Assembly: GCA_050249955.1 (NCBI GenBank)
Contig: JBFWPN010000001.1
Location: 896,716-960,715, forward strand
Reading direction: 5' to 3'
Source: Vicinamibacterales bacterium
GTDB lineage: Bacteria; Acidobacteriota; Vicinamibacteria; Vicinamibacterales; CAVVIG01
Length of the DNA stretch: 64,000 nucleotides
A model generated the notes under the pieces. It saw only the letters and a list, made by a program, of their open reading frames with translations. It was not told the origin of the DNA and did no database searches. A program made the translations under genes and the position numbers. This document shows positions 5,539 to 19,723 of this stretch, in pieces (position 1 is the stretch's first letter; the number at the start of each line of letters is the position of its first letter).

Positions 5539-6789
5539 GTGTCGCGCCTCACTGTTGCCGCCGTCGTGACCGGCGCACTCGCCCTCGCTGCCGCGACAGT
5601 GCCGGCGCAGGGGAGACCCGACATCTTCCAGGTGCCCCTCTCGCATCCGACCATCGCCTACACCACCGCGCCCACCGCCGACCGGATCAGCCGGCTGAAC
5701 AAAGCGCTCGCGGCGGGCACGATCAGGCTGCCGTTCGACCCGGCGAGCGGCTACCTGCGCGGCGTACTGGCCGCGACCGGTGTGGCCGTGGAATCGCAAC
5801 TGCTCGTCTTCTCGCAGACGAGCGCCCAGGCCGACCACATCTCGTTCGCCAACCCGCGCGCCATCTACTTCGACGACGACCTGGCGGTGGGCTGGGTGCG
5901 GGGTGCCGAGGCACTCGAGGTCGCGGTACACGACCCACGGCAGGGTGCCGTCTTCTACACCCTCGCCCAGCGCCCCACGGACACGCCGCAGTTCAGGCGG
6001 GACAACGGCTGCCTCCTCTGCCACGCCATCTTCGAGACGCACGGAGTGCCCGGGTTCCAGGTGCTGAGCACCTTCCCGATGGCGAACGCCGACGCCTACG
6101 CATCCGGCGTCGCCAGCGACCACGGCACGCCCTTCCCCCAGCGCTGGGGCGGGTGGTTCGTCACCGGGCGCAGCGTGCCGGCGCAGCACCTCGGGAACCT
6201 GCCGGTGGTCCGGCCGGTCGGCTCGCACGCGATGCCGGAGGCGCCGGTTCTGGCGTCGGTGCAGGGGCAGTTCGATCTGGCCGGATTCCCCACCGACACG
6301 AGCGACATCGTCGCCCTGCTGGTGCTGGAACACCAGGCGCGCGTGGCCAACGCCCTCACGTGGCTCGGCTGGGAAGCGCGGGTCGCCGAGCCGACGCCCG
6401 CCGGGCGCGACCGCGTCGCCTATGTCGCGCGCGAGGTGGTCGACGACATGCTCCTGGTGGGCGAGGTGCCGCTCGGGCAACCGGTGGAGGGCACATCGGG
6501 GTTCGCACGGCGGTTCGTGGAGAAGGGACGGAGGGATCGGCAGGGTCGCTCGCTGCGAGATCTCGACCTGCAGACGCGCCTGTTCCGGTACCCCTGCAGC
6601 TACATGATCGACTCGGCGGCATTTGCGGCGCTGCCTCCGGAGGCACGGCTGGCGGTCTACGCGCGTTTGCGGGAGGTGCTGTCTGGCGCCGAGGGCTCCC
6701 CTCGCTACGCAGACCTCGCGCCTGCCACGCGTCAGGCGATCGTCGAGATCCTGCGCGACACGCGTGATGATCTGCCGGCCGGGTGGTAA
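5539..6789 (+). CDS. Secreted hypothetical protein with a single CxxCH heme-c motif
   Basis: GTG at 5539. Signal peptide '[25 protein letters not shown]'. One 'CLLCH' motif in '[17 protein letters not shown]'. Conserved-looking C-terminal '[20 protein letters not shown]'. Confidence 0.7.
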
Positions 6790-6814: not shown

Positions 6815-8539
6815 ATGACGACGCCCGTGCCTGACGCACCCGACCTGACCGCAGAGGACCTGCTGGCACTCGTGGACATGGGACGCGAGCTCGCGGCGGT
6901 GCTCGACATCCGCGCGCTCCTGCCGCGCATCCTCTCGCGCGCGTGCTGGCTCACCGACTCGCCCGACGGCAGCGTGATCCTGTTCGATCCGGAGCGGGGC
7001 GACCTCTACTTCGCCGAGGCAGTCGGAAGAGACGCGGCCACGCTGCTCGAGCAGTGGGGACGCCGCCGCCAGAGGGGCATTCCCGTGGACGCGAGCAAGG
7101 CCGGCCAGGTGTTCAGCACCGGGCGCTCGCTGAAGGTGGACCTGCTCGTGGACGACGAGCGGCACTTCAAGGGGGTGGATGCCGATACTCGCCGGGCCAC
7201 CGAGTCCATGATCTGCGTCCCGCTCGTGGTCGGCAGCGACCGGCTGGGGGTCATGCAGATCCTGAACAAGCGCACCGGGAACTACACGGGCCGCGACCTG
7301 ACGCTGCTCGAGCACTTCGCCAGCCAGGCCGCCGTGGCGCTGCGCAATGCCAGGCTCGTGGAGGACGTGCTGGCCCACATGGGCTGGTACGAGACAGAGG
7401 GGGGCGGGCCCGACCCGCTGCGTCTGCTGACGACCCTCCGCAATCCGGCGCACGCCGAGGAACTCACGGTGATGTTCGCCGACATGCGCGGCTACAACCG
7501 GCTGTGCCAGGTGCTGGACCGCCCGGAGCACGTGCAGGCGATCCTGAACGAGTTCCTGACCGAGCTGGCCACGTCCGTCCTCGCCAGCGGGGGCATCGTC
7601 AACAAGTTCCTCGGTGACGGCCTGCTGGCGATCTTCCGCGAGAGGGATACGGCCCTGCGCGCCGTCCGGTGCGCCGCGGACCTCACCCACCGCATGGCTG
7701 CCATGCGCACGCGCTGGGACGAGAACACCAACGCGTCGCTCGAGTTCCTGGACGTGGGCATCGGCATCGCCACCGACACCGTGATTCTCGGATCGATCGG
7801 GACGGCGCGCGTGCGCGACTTCACGGTGCTCGGCACCGGCGTCAACCTGGCCGCGCACCTGACACGCGACGCCAGGCAGGGACGCCGCATCCTTGTGGAC
7901 AAGCGGACCTATCTCGCTGTCCGTTCGATGGTGACCGCGGATCCGCCCGAGGAGTTCGAGCTGAAGAAGCCGGACCAGCCCCAGGGACGACGGTACGAGC
8001 GCTACTGCATCCGCAGCGTGAACGGCACGCAGCTCGCACGCGCGGCATCGGCGGCGTCCCCGGCAGCCTCTCCAGCGCCGGCTGCCGGTGCGGCGCCCGC
8101 ACGCGACAGTATCTTCATCAGCTACAGCCACGACGATCAGCCCTGGCTGGAGAAGCTGAAGGTGCACCTGAAACCGCACACGCGGAAGCGCAGCCTCAGC
8201 GTGTGGGACGACACGCAGATCAAGACCGGGGCGAACTGGCGCGAGGAGATTCGACGCGCGCTGGCGTCGGCGAAGGTGGCCGTGCTGCTGGTGAGCCCGA
8301 ACTTCCTGGCGTCGGACTTCATCACCGACGAAGAGATTCCGCCGCTGCTCGCGGCTGCGAAGGAGGCCGGACTGACCGTCGTCTGGTTTGCCGTGAGCGC
8401 CTGCTCGCACGACCAGACCGACATCCCGGACTACCAGGCGGCCTACAACCCCGAACGTCCGCTGGACAGCCTCTCGCCAGCGGAGCTGAACCAGGCGTTC
8501 GTCGACATCTGTCGGAAGATCAGCGACGCCCTGAGGTAG
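6815..8539 (+). CDS. GAF sensor / class III adenylate-guanylate cyclase / TIR domain fusion protein
   Basis: ATG at 6815, 25 nt after the upstream stop; the long in-frame upstream extension is Arg/Cys-rich junk. Three recognisable domains in one frame (see the domain features below). Confidence 0.9.
6857..7354 (+). other. GAF-like sensor domain (aa ~15-180 of the fusion protein)
   Basis: '[43 protein letters not shown] ... [50 protein letters not shown]', a typical GAF start and end pattern. Confidence 0.7.
7460..7939 (+). other. Class III nucleotidyl cyclase homology domain (aa ~216-375)
   Basis: Metal-binding Asp residues in 'VMFADMRGY' and '[12 protein letters not shown]'. '[16 protein letters not shown]' corresponds to the D...N...R catalytic segment. 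Confidence 0.8.
8108..8524 (+). other. TIR domain (aa ~432-570)
   Basis: '[21 protein letters not shown]', '[22 protein letters not shown]', '[22 protein letters not shown]'. This matches the bacterial TIR_2 pattern (S-x-[WF]-x3-E), with Glu506 (nt 8330-8332) at the catalytic position. Confidence 0.8.
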
Positions 8540-8560
8540 GCACTCGCAGTCCTGCGTGCC
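8539..8560 (+). terminator. Possible hairpin after the GAF-cyclase-TIR gene
   Basis: GGCAC-tc-GCA-gtcc-TGC-GTGCC starts at the stop codon. There is no U-tract, so this is only a weak terminator call. Confidence 0.3.
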
Positions 8561-8601
8561 CCACCTGCCCAGCCAGCCTCGATTCCCGGCCTTGCAGCCC
8601 C

Positions 8602-9936
8602 CTAGACGTGCCGTCCCATGGCCGAGTCGTGCCGTGTGTCGCGCATCATCGTGTACACGACGAGCGACGCGGCAATGACGCCGGTCAGGTAGAAGTAGAA
8701 CCAGTTCTCGTGGCCGATCGACTTGAACCACAGGGCGATCGACTCCGCGGTCCCCCCGAAAATCGACACCGTCACGGCATAGGGCAGGCCGACGCCCGTG
8801 GCCCTGACAGCCGTGGGAAAGAGTTCGGCCTTCACCACGGCGTTGATGGACGTGTAGCCGGCCACGATGATCCAGGCGGCCGCAATCAGCAGGAAGGCGA
8901 CGAAGCCGCTCTTCGTCGACTGCAGCGTGTAGAGGAGTGGAATGGTGAAGAGCGTGCCGGTGACACCGAACCAGATCAGCAGCGGCTTGCGCCCGATGCG
9001 GTCCGAGATGGCACCGTAGATCGGCTGCAGGATCAGCGCGAACACCAGCGACCCTGCCGTCACCAGCGTGGTCTGGTTGTCCGTGAGACCGACCGACAGC
9101 TTCAGGAACTTCTGCATGTAGGTCGTGTAGGTGTAGAAGGCGGTCGTGCCGCCCATGGTCAGGCCGACGACGACCATCACCTCGCGGGGATAGCGCATCA
9201 GCGCCCGCAGCGAGCTCTCGCGCTTCGTGACGACCTGCTTCGCCGCCTTGAAGTCGTCGGTCTCGTGCAGGTTGCGCCGCATCGCGAGGGCGACGACGGC
9301 GAGGAGGGCACCGATGAAGAAGGGGATGCGCCAGCCCCAGGCACGCAACTGCTCGTTGGTGAGGAACACCTGCTGCAGCAGGAGCAGCACCAGCAGCGCG
9401 GTGAGCTGGCCACCGATGAGCGTGACGTACTGGAAGCTCGAATAGAACCCGCGGTTCTTCTCGTCGGCGACCTCGGAGAGGTAGGTGGCGCTCGTGCCGT
9501 ACTCGCCGCCGAGGCTCAGTCCCTGCAGAAGCCGGGCGAGCCCCAGCATGACCGGTGCAGCCAGCCCGATGCTCGCATACGACGGCGTGACCGCAATCAT
9601 GAGCGAGCCGAAGCACATGAGCAGCACGGAGATCATCAGCGCGCTGCGCCGGCCGTACGAATCGGCCAGGTGGCCGAAGAGCCAGCCGCCCACCGGCCGC
9701 ACGATGAAGCCGATGGCAAAGAGGATGGCGGCATTCAGCTGCTGGACGACCGGGTCCGACCCGGGAAAGAAGGCGCCCGCGAAATAGAGCGCGAACGCTG
9801 AGTAGGCGTAGAAGTCGTACCACTCGACCAGGTTGCCGATCGACCCGACGAAGATGGCACCCACCCGCCGACGCACATCGTCGAAGTGGAGCTCGCCTGA
9901 GCGTTCGGTCACCTTGAGTGCTGCGCTGCGTTCCAC
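8602..9936 (-). CDS. MFS transporter, metabolite:H+ symporter family (KgtP/ProP-like)
   Basis: 'VEWYDFYAYSAFALYF' and MFS motif A 'GGWLFGHLADSYGRR'. 12-TM profile. Confidence 0.85.
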   Translation of the reverse strand: MERSAALKVTERSGELHFDDVRRRVGAIFVGSIGNLVEWYDFYAYSAFALYFAGAFFPGSDPVVQQLNAAILFAIGFIVRPVGGWLFGHLADSYGRRSALMISVLLMCFGSLMIAVTPSYASIGLAAPVMLGLARLLQGLSLGGEYGTSATYLSEVADEKNRGFYSSFQYVTLIGGQLTALLVLLLLQQVFLTNEQLRAWGWRIPFFIGALLAVVALAMRRNLHETDDFKAAKQVVTKRESSLRALMRYPREVMVVVGLTMGGTTAFYTYTTYMQKFLKLSVGLTDNQTTLVTAGSLVFALILQPIYGAISDRIGRKPLLIWFGVTGTLFTIPLLYTLQSTKSGFVAFLLIAAAWIIVAGYTSINAVVKAELFPTAVRATGVGLPYAVTVSIFGGTAESIALWFKSIGHENWFYFYLTGVIAASLVVYTMMRDTRHDSAMGRHV

Positions 9937-10018
9937 GCTGTTCTCCAGTGGCTGGCTCCGCCGCGAGATCGGACACGCGCGGGCCGGGCCATCTTATCCG
10001 AGTCGTCCGCGCCCGTGA

Positions 10019-11152: not shown

Positions 11153-12444
11153 CTGCCCTCCTTCGAGGCCGCCGGTCGCATGGGCGACGTGGTGCGATCG
11201 ATGGCCGTGCCCTTCAGGTACACGGCGCTGATACGCCGGGTGTTCGTGATGTCCTCGAGCGGATTGGCATCCAGCACCAGGAAGTCCGCGCTCTTGCCAG
11301 GCGCGATCGTGCCGAGGTCGTCGAGGCGCAGGAACGCCGCCGAGTTGCGCGTGGCAGCCACAATCACCTGCGCCGGCGTGAGTCCCGCGGCCACCATGTC
11401 GGCCATCTCGGCATGCGGTGCCCACGGCGTGTTGCCGTCGGTGCCGAGCGCGATGGTGACACCGGCAGCAGCCAGCTTCGCGAGGTTGCGCGCCTGCAGG
11501 TCAAAGGCCTTCTTCGTCTCCGGCCGGTCGACCGCGTTCTCCTGCAGGCGCCGGAGGTCGTCGGCCGGCAGGCTCGCGGCCAGCCAGCTCATGTCCGTGG
11601 CCACGCCCCTGTCGGGCAGGTTGGGCACCAGCACGAAGGCCGGCTTCTCCTTCAGCAGCGCCAGCACCTCGTCATCGGCGTCGGTGTCACGGATGCCGTG
11701 CGCGAAGGCGTCCACTCCGACCCGCAGCAGGCCCTTCGCATCCGACAGGTTGAAGATGTGGGCCGTCACGCGGAGCCCGGCCGCGTGCGCCTCGTCGATG
11801 ATCGGCGTGTAGAGTTCAGGCGGCAGCTTCTTGTACTGCCCGTTCCGGTCGTCCACCCAGATCTTCACGAGGTCGACCTTCCTCGAGGCGAGTTCACGCA
11901 CCGCCTGCCGACCTTCGGCTTCCGTGGTGATCCAGTACGGCGCGTCGGTCCGCCCGGGCTCGGGCAGCGTGATGCCGCGGCCGGCCGTCCGCACGAGCGC
12001 CACGCCGGGCACCGGGTTCGCACGGATGTCGAAGACCGTGTCTCCCTTGTCCTGGCCAAGGCTCAGGGCGGCGGCCACACCGTAGTAGGCGCGCCGCCTC
12101 AGGTCGTCGACCAGCGCCTCGCGCGTCTGGCTCAGGTGCGTGTGGGTGTCGACGATGGCCGGCATCACCGTCTTGCCGGCAAGGCTCACGTGCGTCGCGC
12201 CGTCGGCCACCGCAATGGACGCGGGCGGCCCCACGGCCAGGATCCGGCCCGCATCGACCACGATCGTGGCGTTCTCGATGGGCGGCGTGTCGGTCCCCGT
12301 GATGACCCGCGCCCCTTCGAACAGCGTGGTCGTGGACTGCGGGTTCTCCAGCTGCGAATCGGATGAGGTGCAGGCCGCGACGAGGAGTGACGAGCCCAGC
12401 GCGGCAGCAACCGCACCGGTGCGAACAGCCAGGAATCGGCGCAT
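11149..12444 (-). CDS. Metal-dependent amidohydrolase family lipoprotein
   Basis: ATG at 12444 gives the lipobox 'SSLLVAAC'. HxH motif 'AIVDTHTHL'. Later 'VTAHIF', 'FAHGI', 'IALGTDG'. Confidence 0.85.
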   Translation of the reverse strand: MRRFLAVRTGAVAAALGSSLLVAACTSSDSQLENPQSTTTLFEGARVITGTDTPPIENATIVVDAGRILAVGPPASIAVADGATHVSLAGKTVMPAIVDTHTHLSQTREALVDDLRRRAYYGVAAALSLGQDKGDTVFDIRANPVPGVALVRTAGRGITLPEPGRTDAPYWITTEAEGRQAVRELASRKVDLVKIWVDDRNGQYKKLPPELYTPIIDEAHAAGLRVTAHIFNLSDAKGLLRVGVDAFAHGIRDTDADDEVLALLKEKPAFVLVPNLPDRGVATDMSWLAASLPADDLRRLQENAVDRPETKKAFDLQARNLAKLAAAGVTIALGTDGNTPWAPHAEMADMVAAGLTPAQVIVAATRNSAAFLRLDDLGTIAPGKSADFLVLDANPLEDITNTRRISAVYLKGTAIDRTTSPMRPAASKEGR

Positions 12445-12612
12445 GCCATGCCTCCGGGAAAGAATCGCACTGTAACGCGGAGCGTCGCGCGAGACAACTG
12501 CGGGCGATCGGCGCAACATCGTTGCCGAACGGGGGCCATCGCGGGGGGTGCGCATGGCCAGGTGAGTTTACCGTTGTGGCTCGTGGTCCCCTCGTGGAGA
12601 ATCTCCGGCACT

Positions 12613-13401
12613 GTGACGCCTACACGCGCATCCATCCGCCCGGGCCTGCTCATCCTCGTGGCTCTCGTCGTGACCGGTGTCCTGTGCACGCCGCTGACGG
12701 CCTCCGCGCAGCTCAAGGTCATCATCTCTGGCGGCTTCAACGCGGCCTACCGCGAGCTGCTGCCGCAGTTCGAGGCGGCCAATGGCGTGACCGTCACGAC
12801 CACCAGCGGTGGATCGGTCGGCACCGGACCGAACACGATCGGCGCCCAGATCCGTCGAGGCGTGCCGGCTGACGTCGTGATCCTCGCCCGTGAGGGGCTG
12901 CGCGACCTGATCGCGGAACAGCGGATTGCCGCCGGCAGCGATGTAGACCTTGCCCGGTCGATCATCGGCGTGGTCGTGCGGAGCGGCGCCCCGAAACCGG
13001 ACATCAGCACGCCCGAGAAACTGAAGCAGGTGCTGCTCCAGGCCAAGTCGGTGGCCGTCTCGAGCAGCACGAGCGGCGTCTACCTCACCACCACCCTCTT
13101 CCCGAAGCTCGGCATCGCGGACGCGATGAAGGCCAAGACCAGCATGAGCGGCGCTGCCCTCGTCGGCCGCGGCGAGGCGGAGGTCGGCCTGCAGCAGGTC
13201 AGCGAGATCCTGCCGATTCCGAACACCACCTTCGTCGGCACCATCCCTGAAGAGATCCAGTACGTCACCACCTATGCCGGTGGTGTCGTGGCCGGCTCGG
13301 CGAATGCGTCCATGGCCTCGAAGCTGCTGGCATTCCTGTCGTCGGCTGCCGCGGCGCCGGCCGTGACGCGCAGCGGCATGGAGCCGGCGACCCGCCGCTG
13401 A
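12613..13401 (+). CDS. Periplasmic substrate-binding protein, ModA/type-2 PBP-like (start uncertain)
   Basis: GTG at 12613 gives a signal peptide ending 'LTASAQ'. 'LKVIISGGFNAAYRELLPQFEAANGVTVTTTSGGS ... ADVVILA' resembles molybdate/anion-binding proteins. No permease or ATPase partner is adjacent. Confidence 0.6.
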   Translation: MTPTRASIRPGLLILVALVVTGVLCTPLTASAQLKVIISGGFNAAYRELLPQFEAANGVTVTTTSGGSVGTGPNTIGAQIRRGVPADVVILAREGLRDLIAEQRIAAGSDVDLARSIIGVVVRSGAPKPDISTPEKLKQVLLQAKSVAVSSSTSGVYLTTTLFPKLGIADAMKAKTSMSGAALVGRGEAEVGLQQVSEILPIPNTTFVGTIPEEIQYVTTYAGGVVAGSANASMASKLLAFLSSAAAAPAVTRSGMEPATRR

Positions 13402-13525: not shown

Positions 13526-16375
<2,850 letters not shown>

Positions 16376-17234: not shown

Positions 17235-17870
17235 TTATCTGCCGAACAGCTGGGCGGCCAGGGCGGCCGCCTTGTCGGCGAGGTTGTTCGCGAAGACGAG
17301 GTTCCGGGCGCGGAGCGCCTCTTCTGCCTGCGTGGCGAAGCGCTTGGCGGTGTCGTACTGGTTCCGGGCGTCGGCGTTCAGCGCCTGGTAGTTCACCCGG
17401 TTCAGGTCGTTCAGCGCCTGACTGATGAGGATGCGTACGCGGCGCTCCACCTCGCCCTCGCGCTGCGTCGGCGTGGTCTGCAGCGTGGTCGGCGGGGTCC
17501 GGGGCTGGTCGTCCGCGGGCTTGGGTGTCTCGCTCACCACGACGTCGGTGCGGGGCGGCTCCGTGCTGCGCGGGGCGTCGGTTCTCGCCGGAGCCGTGGG
17601 CCTGGTCCGCACCGGAGTCTGCGGCTCGTCGGGCAGCGACACGATGGGCGACTGCGGCGGTTCGGCCGCCTCGACGATGCGCGGGGGTGGAGCGGGCATG
17701 TCGAGCGGAGGGAGTTCCGCCACCGTGCTCGCCTGACCGTGCGCACAGGCTCCAGCGACGAGCGGCAGCAGCCACAGGCACGCGTGGCGAGCCGCGCGTC
17801 CTGCCCTGGCTCGCCATCCCTGCGTCTCCGTGCTCCTGTCCCGCTGCATGCGCATGCTCACCGACCTCAC
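17235..17870 (-). CDS. Proline-rich lipoprotein with C-terminal helical domain (hypothetical)
   Basis: Lipobox 'LLPLVAGAC'. Pro/Thr-rich spacer followed by the helical 'RVRILISQALNDLNRVNYQALNADARNQYDTAKRFATQAEEALRARN'. The longest start, GTG at 17870, overlaps the kinase stop (GTGA); alternative ATGs at 17855 and 17849. Confidence 0.65.
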   Translation of the reverse strand: MRSVSMRMQRDRSTETQGWRARAGRAARHACLWLLPLVAGACAHGQASTVAELPPLDMPAPPPRIVEAAEPPQSPIVSLPDEPQTPVRTRPTAPARTDAPRSTEPPRTDVVVSETPKPADDQPRTPPTTLQTTPTQREGEVERRVRILISQALNDLNRVNYQALNADARNQYDTAKRFATQAEEALRARNLVFANNLADKAAALAAQLFGR

Positions 17871-19723
17871 GCCTGCGGCAGCAGGATCGTGAAGGTCGTC
17901 CCCTTCCCTGGAGTTGACTGTACTTCAATCTCGCCGTCGTGCATCTGCACGGTGCGATAGACCATCGACAGGCCGATGCCGCTGCCCCGCTCCTTCGTCG
18001 TGAAGTAGAGGTCGAAGATGCGCTGCAGGTGTTCCGGCTTGATGCCCACGCCCGTGTCGGCCACGGTGATGCGGACACGGCGGCCGCGCACCCCCTCGCA
18101 CCGCAGCCGGAGCGTGCCCCCGCCGGGCATCGCCTGGCAGGCGTTCAGCGCCAGGTTCAGCAGCGCCTGCCTGAGCATCGTGGGATCGCCGTTCACCTCG
18201 GGCTCGCCCTCGGCCTCGGTCACGATCTGGACACCGCGCTGGTTCGCCTCGGTCGAGATGATCGGCACCACCTCGTTGATCAGCTCCGTGAGGTTCACCG
18301 GCCGCAGCTGCAGGTCCTCGGGGCGCGAGAACTTGAGGAAGCCCTGCACCACCTCGTCGAGCCGGCGGATCTCGCGCGCGATGACGTCGACGTGCTGCAA
18401 CGCCTCTGGTGCCGGGGCCCCGGCGGGGCCGGCGTCGAGGTTCAGTGGGCCGCGGGCGGCACCGCGCGCCGAGGCGAGGGCCGACGGCGCCACGTACTGC
18501 CGCAGCAGCTCGAGGTGGATCATCATCGCGTTCAGCGGGTTCTTCACCTCGTGCGCCACGCCGGCCGAGAGCCTGCCCAGGGCGGCGAGCTTGCGCGAGT
18601 ACCGGATGGTGGACTCGACCTGGCTGAGGTACTCCACGTTGCGCGCGATGAGCATCACACCCACAAGGTGTCCGGCCCCGTCGTTCACCGGATGCGCCAG
18701 CAACAGGCGTTCACCCGCCTCGCCCTTGGGCTCGCCGAACACCGCCTGCGTCGGTCCGCGCGACTGGCGCGTGGTGAGGGTGTCCTCCGCCATGCGGCGC
18801 AAGGGATGGTCGGGCGCGATCAGCGCCTCGAGCGCTGCACCCGGTGCGGCAGCCGGCAGCAGCAGGCGCATGGCCGGATTGGCGAACAGCAGCCGGCCGT
18901 CCGGGCCGACGATGGCCACGGCATCCTCGAGGTGTTCGACCGCCGACTCGAGGTGCGCCACCTGTCCCGCCATGTGCGAACGGTCGGCCGCAATCTGGGC
19001 GCTCATGGTGTTGAAGAAGGTGCCCAGTTCCCCGAACTCGTCGGCCTGCGGCAGGTCGAGCTGCACGCCCGACTCACCGCGGCCAAGGCGCGTGAGGCCG
19101 CTCCTGATCACGTGGATGGGGCGGAGGAGCAGCTGCGCCAGTACCGTCGCCCCGAAGACGGCGGCGGCGAGCGCACCAAGGGCCGTCAGTACCGCCGGAC
19201 CGAGCGAGCGGTTCAGGTCGCGGCGGATGAGCAGCGTGGAGACGCCGATGTGAATGGAGCCGATCGGCTGGTCGCCCATGAACAGCGGCTGCGCGTATTC
19301 GAGGTTGCGGCCCTGGTCACGGTAGATGGCCAGCAGCCGGCTGAAGGCGGGCCGGTCGAGCAGTTCCTGCAGGTTGGCCGACCGCGGCAGCGGACGACCC
19401 TCCTGGCTGGTGTCGGCATTGAGCACCGCGATGCCGTCGGGGCTGGTGATGGCGGCCACGGTGACCGCCGGATCGTTCAGGCTGGCTTCGAGAATCGAGC
19501 GGAGCGCGGCGTCGGCGTGCAGCGCCTCGTACGGGTCGCTGACAATCGGCACCGCGCTCGCGCGGTAGGAGATGGCGCTGGCCAGCAGCTCGGCGCGCGC
19601 CCCACTGTCGTCGAGGCCCGCCTTGGCGAGCTGCGACAGGTGCATCAGGCTCAGGGCCACTACCACCACACCCACGATGGTGGTGACGCCGAGCACCTGC
19701 TTGCCCTTGATGCCGAGTCGCAT
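17867..19723 (-). CDS. Sensor histidine kinase (TM-HAMP-PAS-HisKA-HATPase)
   Basis: N-terminal TM 'VTTIVGVVVVALSLM', HAMP 'LLLRPIHVIRSGLTRLGRGE', H-box 'GVAHEVKNPLNAM', and ATPase boxes 'NLALNACQAM', 'DTGVGI', 'GSGIGLSMV'. Confidence 0.9.
   Translation of the reverse strand: MRLGIKGKQVLGVTTIVGVVVVALSLMHLSQLAKAGLDDSGARAELLASAISYRASAVPIVSDPYEALHADAALRSILEASLNDPAVTVAAITSPDGIAVLNADTSQEGRPLPRSANLQELLDRPAFSRLLAIYRDQGRNLEYAQPLFMGDQPIGSIHIGVSTLLIRRDLNRSLGPAVLTALGALAAAVFGATVLAQLLLRPIHVIRSGLTRLGRGESGVQLDLPQADEFGELGTFFNTMSAQIAADRSHMAGQVAHLESAVEHLEDAVAIVGPDGRLLFANPAMRLLLPAAAPGAALEALIAPDHPLRRMAEDTLTTRQSRGPTQAVFGEPKGEAGERLLLAHPVNDGAGHLVGVMLIARNVEYLSQVESTIRYSRKLAALGRLSAGVAHEVKNPLNAMMIHLELLRQYVAPSALASARGAARGPLNLDAGPAGAPAPEALQHVDVIAREIRRLDEVVQGFLKFSRPEDLQLRPVNLTELINEVVPIISTEANQRGVQIVTEAEGEPEVNGDPTMLRQALLNLALNACQAMPGGGTLRLRCEGVRGRRVRITVADTGVGIKPEHLQRIFDLYFTTKERGSGIGLSMVYRTVQMHDGEIEVQSTPGKGTTFTILLPQA

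Follow-up and report, generated by a model that had tools for sequence, protein, structure and literature searches.

A candidate single-protein switch: GAF sensor, class III cyclase and TIR domain joined in one chain in a Vicinamibacterales bacterium

In CBASS, Pycsar/Pucsar and type III CRISPR systems the signal generator and the effector are separate proteins. Pycsar and Pucsar consist of a cyclase (PycC or PucC) and a separate effector in which a cyclic mononucleotide (cNMP)-binding domain is joined to a TIR domain or which carries a transmembrane segment; in TIR-SAVED and Cat1 (CARF-TIR) a TIR NADase is activated by an assembly that the cyclic nucleotide induces. SARM1 (ARM-SAM-TIR) is a single polypeptide whose TIR NADase, in oligomerized form, is gated by an allosteric sensor of nucleotides, and the CyaB1 and CyaB2 proteins of Anabaena (GAF-GAF-PAS-class IIIb adenylate cyclase) are subject to feed-forward activation by cAMP. 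The subject of this report is a gene at positions 6815–8539 (+ strand) of a 64,000-nucleotide stretch of contig JBFWPN010000001.1 from a Vicinamibacterales bacterium (hereafter the window, meaning the whole stretch analyzed), the 574-residue product of which carries a GAF domain, a class III cyclase homology domain (CHD) and a TIR domain. It belongs to a family that joins sensor, cyclase, and executioner in one chain, and in which the executioner (TIR, SEFIR, caspase, or CHAT) is exchanged while the GAF-cyclase chassis is kept.

We tentatively interpret this protein as a single chain in which a GAF-gated cyclase chassis licenses an effector that is tethered to it and activated by proximity, in this case a TIR domain of the NAD+-cleaving type; our confidence in this falls somewhat short of even. 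If active, such a protein would provide a minimal and genetically portable model of how nucleotide signals license the activation of TIR or caspase domains, would connect classical cAMP signaling under GAF control with NAD+ depletion, and would add an immunity or programmed-death family that is abundant in Acidobacteriota and Gemmatimonadota, soil phyla that have been little studied.

Domain layout and exchange of effectors

The frame is intact, with an uninterrupted translation of 574 codons plus a stop, and its GC content at third codon positions (GC3; 0.89) is of the coding type in a window of ~69% GC. The ATG at 6815 gives an N-terminus that matches the N-terminus of the homologues in alignment, and one database protein (P0001) is 100% identical. 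With the curated Pfam cut-offs as the threshold for domain calls, matches above it were obtained for GAF_2 (residues 30–176; E 4.5e-15), Guanylate_cyc (residues 214–384; E 7.9e-13), and TIR_2 (residues 433–527; E 3.7e-15). An AlphaFold2 model of the full protein, built on 111 homologues, reveals three folded domains at a mean predicted local distance difference test score (pLDDT) of 90.9. Profiles and folds thus agree with the three-domain frame recognized in an earlier reading of the sequence alone (the first-pass annotation), and the motifs which that reading quoted are present in the protein.

The GAF domain, which is of the cNMP-binding type, is encoded at 6902–7342 (residues 30–176; coordinates within the window refer to the + strand unless stated otherwise). 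The sensor is linked to the cyclase by the long C-terminal helix of the GAF domain and a transducer segment with a conserved LLAHMG motif (7289–7450; residues 159–212), for which AlphaFold2 predicts helices at residues 159–188 and 201–209 and which is also covered in Foldseek comparisons. There follow the IIIb-like CHD (7451–8020; residues 213–402), an Ala/Pro-rich flexible linker (8021–8107; residues 403–431), and the TIR domain (8108–8536; residues 432–574). The linker noted in the first-pass annotation was confirmed: the model shows disorder there (pLDDT <50 at residues 414–426), and its sequence is hypervariable, with a mean pairwise identity across the 111 homologues of 14%, compared with ~54% for each of the GAF, CHD, and TIR domains. 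This equal constraint on the three domains implies that purifying selection acts on all of them.

A search of 5.8 billion proteins yielded 424 matches, the best 120 of which form the basis of the family figures; the conservation counts derive from an alignment of 111 family members. There are more than 110 full-length homologues of 530–620 residues, which are 43–75% identical, share the same GAF, cyclase, and TIR_2 Pfam content, and carry generic names only. They were found in metagenome-assembled genomes (MAGs) of Acidobacteriota, Gemmatimonadota, Actinomycetota, Burkholderiales, and Desulfobacterota, the named sources being Vicinamibacterales, Longimicrobium, Geobacteraceae, Actinomycetota, and Acidimicrobiales MAGs. 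Among 185,579 GTDB species representatives there are only ~20 chassis loci (37–64% identity), a sparse distribution that nonetheless spans phyla. The architecture is not peculiar to this genome: it defines a family of more than 110 sequence clusters. Two copies are irregular: around 8001–9407 of locus L014 (Bryobacteraceae) only a 21-codon open reading frame (ORF) extends from the start of the match, and at 7911–9320 of L015 (deltaproteobacterial) the end falls within the TIR domain. Frameshifts, pseudogenes, or artefacts of extraction may account for both.

The chassis was also sought in the GTDB representative genomes and, using a GAF-cyclase profile, among 1.84 billion cluster representatives. 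The profile search was heavily contaminated by giant multi-GAF proteins and only matches to the full module in a single stretch were kept; the giants (including P0122, P0123, P0129, P0141, and P0157) measure 1,400–3,800 residues and possess 6–22 tandem GAF domains of the same subtype. At 37–52% identity, the GAF-cyclase module was found joined to several different effectors, at either terminus. A second TIR_2 subtype, exhibiting the canonical S-x-W-V-R-x-E spacing, is present in Thiodiazotropha, Bryobacterales, Terriglobia, and an alphaproteobacterial MAG. Pfam analysis further revealed a Peptidase_C14 caspase domain at the C-terminus (locus L017, 7986–10010; P0125) or at the N-terminus (P0156), an N-terminal CHAT domain (P0121), and an N-terminal SEFIR/TIR domain (P0204); the caspase-like His and Cys motifs of L017 are intact when the sequence is read by eye. 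Rarely, the module stands without an effector, as in the 401-residue P0127 (locus L090, 6001–7206), which is preceded by an abutting 67-residue ORF and lies near ribonucleotide reductase and cytochrome genes.

An alignment of 35 chassis sequences (the protein described here and 34 representatives at 50% identity) includes 26 with a C-terminal TIR_2 domain, three with a caspase-superfamily domain, and one with SEFIR, the remainder being mostly fragments. All effector variants share the GAF invariants and, in the CHD, the signature D-K-D-T-N-[not R]...R. Bacterial conflict systems classically draw on TIR and caspase-superfamily domains as effectors that can stand in for each other and are activated by induced proximity. 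Because TIR, caspase, CHAT, and SEFIR domains are swapped on a conserved chassis, the terminal domain is presumably an effector under GAF-cyclase control; and because it may sit at either end, control through the assembly state is likelier than a rigid allosteric connection. The predicted disorder of the linker in this protein agrees with assembly-state control.

Residues of the three domains and a proposed mechanism

The best PDB profile matches to the GAF domain are Anabaena CyaB2 (1ykd; 1.2e-23) and the GAF domains of PDE5, PDE10, and PDE2 (1e-13 to 1e-16), with the GAF domain of an HD-GYP protein (4mcw) also among them. The top Foldseek match, a phytochrome-linked cyclase (6fht), covers the sensor through to the cyclase, and the GAF domain of Lcd1 in complex with cAMP (5w10) was matched with a TM-score (TMt) of 0.85. 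A motif resembling the NKFDE signature defined for cNMP-binding GAF domains (PMC4411481) consists of N151 (98% of the family), K152 (89%), Y157 (100%, replacing F), and D161 (94%); the position of the final E is Leu in this protein. In GAF-B of CyaB2 the ligand is contacted by R291, T293, I308, D356, and N359 (PMC4411481). The invariant D122 aligns with the cAMP-contacting D356 and T125 (96%) with N359, and both, together with T129, are conserved on the ligand-pocket helix. The ligand of this GAF domain is likely a nucleotide. A heme-type GAF (DosS/DevS) was also considered; matches to it were partial and weak (~1e-7, in the C-terminal helix region, versus 1e-23 for the cNMP type), and the heme option of the first-pass annotation (DosS/DosT) is accordingly disfavored.

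The cyclase scores 48.8 bits against Guanylate_cyc (PF00211; cut-off 21.9). Its closest PDB profile matches are Pseudomonas aeruginosa CyaB (3r5g; 2.4e-28), Synechocystis Cya2 (2w01), and Spirulina CyaC (1wc0), with which Foldseek returned TMt values of 0.82–0.86. The metal-binding residues D223 (7481–7483) and D268 (7616–7618), as well as K264 (7604–7606) and T337 (7823–7825), are invariant in all 111 homologues, the latter two aligning with the corresponding Lys and Thr of CyaB. Of the 35 aligned sequences of the chassis, 34 have D223 and all 35 have D268, and each of the D/K/D/T residues is found in at least 31. A Lys/Thr substrate pair is the pattern of class IIIb adenylate cyclases and implies ATP. 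Since K264 and T337 constitute such a pair, the predicted substrate is ATP and the predicted product cAMP.

The TIR domain was modeled separately (pLDDT 86), as the Foldseek list for the whole protein was dominated by matches to the cyclase and GAF domains. Its best structural matches are the enzymatic TIR domains of RPP1, SARM1, SPARTA, AbTir, and Cat1, with a probability of 1.00 for SARM1, RPP1, AbTir, and SPARTA. Residues S436, Y437, D441, W464-D465-D466 (at the entry to the BB-loop), G472, W475, S500, and F502 are invariant or nearly so. Glu507 (8333–8335) is invariant (111/111) and is situated in the first turns of the helix spanning residues 501–518, at the start of αC; profile alignment places it in the catalytic-Glu column of PdTIR (3h16, QKELDG) and AtTIR (3jrn, WCLDEL), relative to which the family has a one-residue insertion. 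The first-pass annotation was right that a catalytic-type Glu exists and wrong in its numbering: Glu506, which it named, is variable (N38/E31/H13/S12 and others). NADase activity of this domain is plausible on these residues.

Active sites of class III cyclases form only at the dimer interface, and for this reason the GAF-cyclase chassis should be an obligate dimerizing unit. According to the mechanism that we propose, a ligand, most likely a cyclic purine nucleotide and possibly the enzyme's own product, would bind to the GAF domain and promote or rearrange chassis dimers or oligomers. The rearrangement would turn on the cyclase through the helical transducer and, if product and ligand are the same, lead to feed-forward amplification. 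In this respect the N-terminal two-thirds of the protein would follow the plan of the GAF-regulated cyclases CyaB1 and CyaB2. The tethered TIR domains would thereby be gathered into an active assembly, which would consume NAD+ or make ADP-ribose (ADPR)-derived signals and bring about growth arrest or death. We infer a biological role in conflict, abortive infection, or programmed dormancy. A bolder version, which we regard as doubtful, is that the cNMP made by one molecule binds the GAF domains of its neighbors and gives rise to runaway dimers or oligomers, with more cyclase sites and more effectors (TIR here, caspase in relatives) joined until NAD+ collapse or proteolysis is all-or-none. Generator, receptor, amplifier, and executioner would then reside in one chain, with the effector exchangeable at either terminus.

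Points against the switch and rival explanations

Each domain, as well as the setting of the gene, also furnishes observations that weigh against the switch proposed here. To begin with the sensor, the residues by which known cAMP- and cGMP-binding GAF domains recognize the base are not conserved in the family. R291 of CyaB2 is replaced by D51, at an apparently variable position of the family alignment, and T293 by S53 (93%); the protein has an inserted helix instead of the I308 region.

In the cyclase, the transition-state Asn is present as N344 (7844–7846) and is retained in 82% of the family but lost in 18%. The position of the transition-state Arg is occupied by His348 (7856–7858); the family has H54/Y21/N10/F6/A5/R4, which is non-Arg in 107 of the 111 members, and the canonical Arg is missing in all but one of the aligned representatives of the wider chassis. 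The N-x-x-x-R motif of helix α4 is therefore not present (the aligned segment of CyaB reads VNLASRLES), and with the Arg missing and the Asn lost in part of the family, turnover is possibly low or absent. The domain retains the residues for metal and nucleotide binding, yet is not fully canonical.

A second Arg, R354 (7874–7876), lies in the motif A-R-x-G-R-R, in the loop after helix α4 or at the C-terminal end of that helix. It is invariant in the family (111/111) and present in 31 of the 35 aligned chassis sequences, two of the other four having gaps; the effector-less P0127 possesses Lys here. To our knowledge, canonical class III cyclases have no Arg at this position. The position of the missing canonical catalytic Arg lies six residues before R354, and R354 itself is probably too distant, at ~10 residues beyond N344, to act as a substitute. 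Systematic loss of the transition-state Arg with retention of the other catalytic residues poses a clear enzymological question.

One answer is that the cyclase is a pseudo-enzyme scaffold, that is, a nucleotide-binding dimerization platform on which the GAF ligand, or occupancy by ATP or GTP, gates the TIR domain directly. The near-universal absence of the Arg and the partial loss of the Asn are what such a scaffold would be expected to display, the invariant, family-specific R354 suggests a repurposed surface, and passages of Kaur et al. (PMC7159879) describe inactive cNMP-cyclase domains in other conflict systems. Pseudo-enzymes, however, usually lose the metal-binding Asp, substrate Lys, and Thr residues, which here show no variation in 111 sequences and very little in the wider chassis, and the CHD is as strongly conserved as the GAF and TIR domains. 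Moreover, in class III cyclases mutation of this Arg impairs activity but does not abolish it. We consider the scaffold decidedly unlikely.

With regard to the TIR domain, the top sequence-profile matches include the non-enzymatic domains of TLR6, TLR2, and TLR1, which also have Glu at the position of E507; this residue is thus necessary but not sufficient for NADase activity. From this it could be argued that the domain is a non-enzymatic interaction or oligomerization module, comparable to those of TLR and MyD88, which clusters the cyclase and leaves the cNMP as the only output. We find this quite improbable, considering the conservation across 111 sequences of E507, of the WDD/G472/W475 block, and of S500 and F502, the enzymatic nature of the best Foldseek matches, and the fact that relatives hold, at the equivalent position, caspase-like proteases with intact His and Cys motifs, which are catalytic effectors. 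A more general difficulty for the switch is that the effectors would already be paired if the cyclase were a constitutive dimer, and an extra gating step therefore has to be assumed.

The genomic setting is of the housekeeping type, no defense gene having been found among the window neighbors in Pfam and PADLOC scans. In a related Vicinamibacterales MAG (L001) the flanks are shared (ABC, M28, and CtaA genes on one side and MFS on the other), and the GAF-cyclase-TIR copy is 74% identical, against 71–87% for the flanking genes, which speaks for vertical inheritance at an ordinary rate; in this comparison the accelerated evolution typical of immune genes is not seen. Among 72,556 plasmids and 50,697 phages there was no match covering at least 80% of the protein. 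Given the housekeeping context and the ordinary evolutionary rate, a role in defense would be a hypothesis only.

These data would also fit an ordinary, physiological GAF-regulated adenylate cyclase of a soil bacterium. Its TIR domain would couple cAMP with the metabolism of NAD+, or with a signal derived from ADPR, in the control of stress or dormancy rather than in immunity or suicide. Such an enzyme would suit a neighborhood devoid of defense genes, order-level synteny with divergence equal to that of the flanking genes, a cyclase closest to the physiological class IIIb adenylate cyclases, and the existence of P0127 as a plain GAF-cyclase; the many invariant GAF residues, too, suggest a fixed endogenous ligand and not a variable invader cue. 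Replacement of the TIR domain by caspase or CHAT domains at either terminus is, on the other hand, hard to fit to an NAD-specific metabolic role. The distribution over phyla, moreover, is very sparse and patchy despite ~50% identity, and at some loci the family member has toxin-antitoxin genes, part of an integrase gene, or a second TIR protein as neighbors. On balance, we deem the physiological enzyme rather unlikely, although credible. Effector swapping argues that a purely metabolic reading is not a comfortable one, and it favors the one-gene switch suggested in the first-pass annotation; the defense role attached to that switch finds no such backing, since there is no defense-island context and divergence is ordinary.

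The gene order of the window runs from Opp-type ABC ATPases, a sulfotransferase, an M28 peptidase, CtaA, and a 416-residue ORF to the GAF-cyclase-TIR gene, and from there to an MFS transporter, an NHL-repeat protein, an amidohydrolase, a solute-binding protein, a class II ribonucleotide reductase, a histidine kinase, a sigma-54 regulator, and TamB. The 416-residue ORF (5539–6789; + strand; GC3 0.89), which stops 25 nt before the GAF-cyclase-TIR gene, gave no match in Pfam, NCBIfam, or PADLOC; it was rejected as an operon partner, as it has no family matches and an unrelated multicopper oxidase takes its place in L001. Neither a ThsA, SIR2, or Macro gene nor a CD-NTase or cNMP-binding partner was detected in the Pfam and PADLOC scans of the neighbors, as the first-pass annotation had stated. 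In the 64-kb window no Rfam family attained its gathering score and no tRNA was detected; scans for promoters and terminators were equally empty, and the Rfam scan revealed no cobalamin riboswitch beside the class II (B12-type) ribonucleotide reductase gene (13526–16375; − strand).

The neighborhoods of nine further loci for which genes had been called, and of 17 loci from GTDB, proved to be unrelated. All-against-all BLAST of the ORFs within 6 kb disclosed no conserved neighbor in 25 family loci, synteny being confined to genus or order, and so the protein appears to act alone; no partner gene emerged from this check on neighborhood conservation either. Neighbors of the toxin-antitoxin, integrase, or TIR kind occur at a few loci only; most have none. 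In an Actinomycetota MAG (L006), a stand-alone TIR_2 protein of 285 residues (11760–12617; − strand) is convergent with the family member at a distance of 20 nt, and a PIN/PhdYeFM toxin-antitoxin pair and a 1065-residue AAA_16 protein lie within 9 kb. In L007 a phage-integrase fragment (9703–9900) is located directly upstream of the family member and ParD/ParE (17543–18102) 6 kb downstream, which hints at a variable region. A 5′-nucleotidase (Metallophos and 5_nucleotid_C; 8308–9972; + strand) ends 29 nt upstream of the same-strand family member in L009; it could represent a link to nucleotide metabolism in that lineage only.

Comparison with known systems

No characterized protein with the GAF-cyclase-TIR architecture was found in the full-text literature searched, in line with the statement of the first-pass annotation that none was known. 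Kaur, Burroughs, Iyer, and Aravind (2020; PMC7159879), in the passages concerned, describe cNMP cyclase, caspase-superfamily, and TIR domains that are fused and mutually displace one another. The systems covered there differ in being multi-gene ternary or two-gene arrangements, built on vWA-MoxR, STAND, or transmembrane components, and the passages of that paper on GAF or cNMP do not describe a stand-alone GAF-cyclase chassis with a terminal effector. Likewise, the text consulted in a 2026 preprint survey of immune cNMP cyclases makes no mention of the fusion.

With Pycsar and Pucsar the family shares a class III-fold cyclase combined with a TIR domain of the NADase type and, conceptually, a logic that leads from a cyclic mononucleotide to NAD+ depletion. 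It differs in being one polypeptide instead of a two-gene operon and in lacking a cNMP-binding domain of their kind, so that the GAF domain is the only candidate receptor. A Pycsar effector gene (cNMP-binding domain with TIR or transmembrane domain) is absent from the window and none is conserved in the 25 family loci. In the PDB profile search of the cyclase, the PycC structure 7r65 scored 9.4e-11, versus 2.4e-28 for CyaB. PADLOC matches to PycC were rejected as evidence for Pycsar, since the 64 bits obtained here are exceeded by the physiological cyclases CyaB (105.7 bits) and Cya2 (80.5 bits), which served as controls. The Pycsar analogy drawn in the first-pass annotation is hence without support as regards membership: the cyclase is nearer to CyaB than to PycC, and the PADLOC scores are non-specific. 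For Thoeris there were weak ThsB_TIR matches (Pfam 0.0087; PADLOC ThsB1 7e-13, at the domain level only) and no ThsA-like gene nearby; for CBASS, neither the protein nor its neighbors gave a Pfam or PADLOC match to a CD-NTase or SMODS domain. On these defining features the protein belongs to none of Pycsar, Thoeris, and CBASS.

TIR-SAVED and Cat1 resemble the mechanism proposed here in the activation of a TIR NADase by cyclic-nucleotide-induced assembly. PADLOC SAVED_TIR models match the TIR domain at 4e-13, and Cat1 and TIR-SAVED are among its PDB matches. They differ in being receptors only, with SAVED or CARF sensors and not GAF, and in obtaining their signal from a separate CD-NTase or Cas10. 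SARM1 combines, in a single polypeptide, a small-molecule sensor, an oligomerization module, and a TIR domain with a catalytic Glu (TMt ~0.65); its ARM sensor and SAM octamer are unrelated to the GAF-cyclase unit, and it is without a nucleotide cyclase. CyaB1 and CyaB2 have in common with the family a cNMP-type GAF domain, which precedes a IIIb-like CHD in the chain and connects to it through a helix, as well as the K/T substrate pair and the correspondence of D122 and T125 to D356 and N359 of CyaB2. By comparison, the family has a single GAF domain, which lacks a conserved counterpart of the adenine-reading R291 of CyaB2, no PAS domain, a replaced transition-state Arg, and an appended TIR domain.

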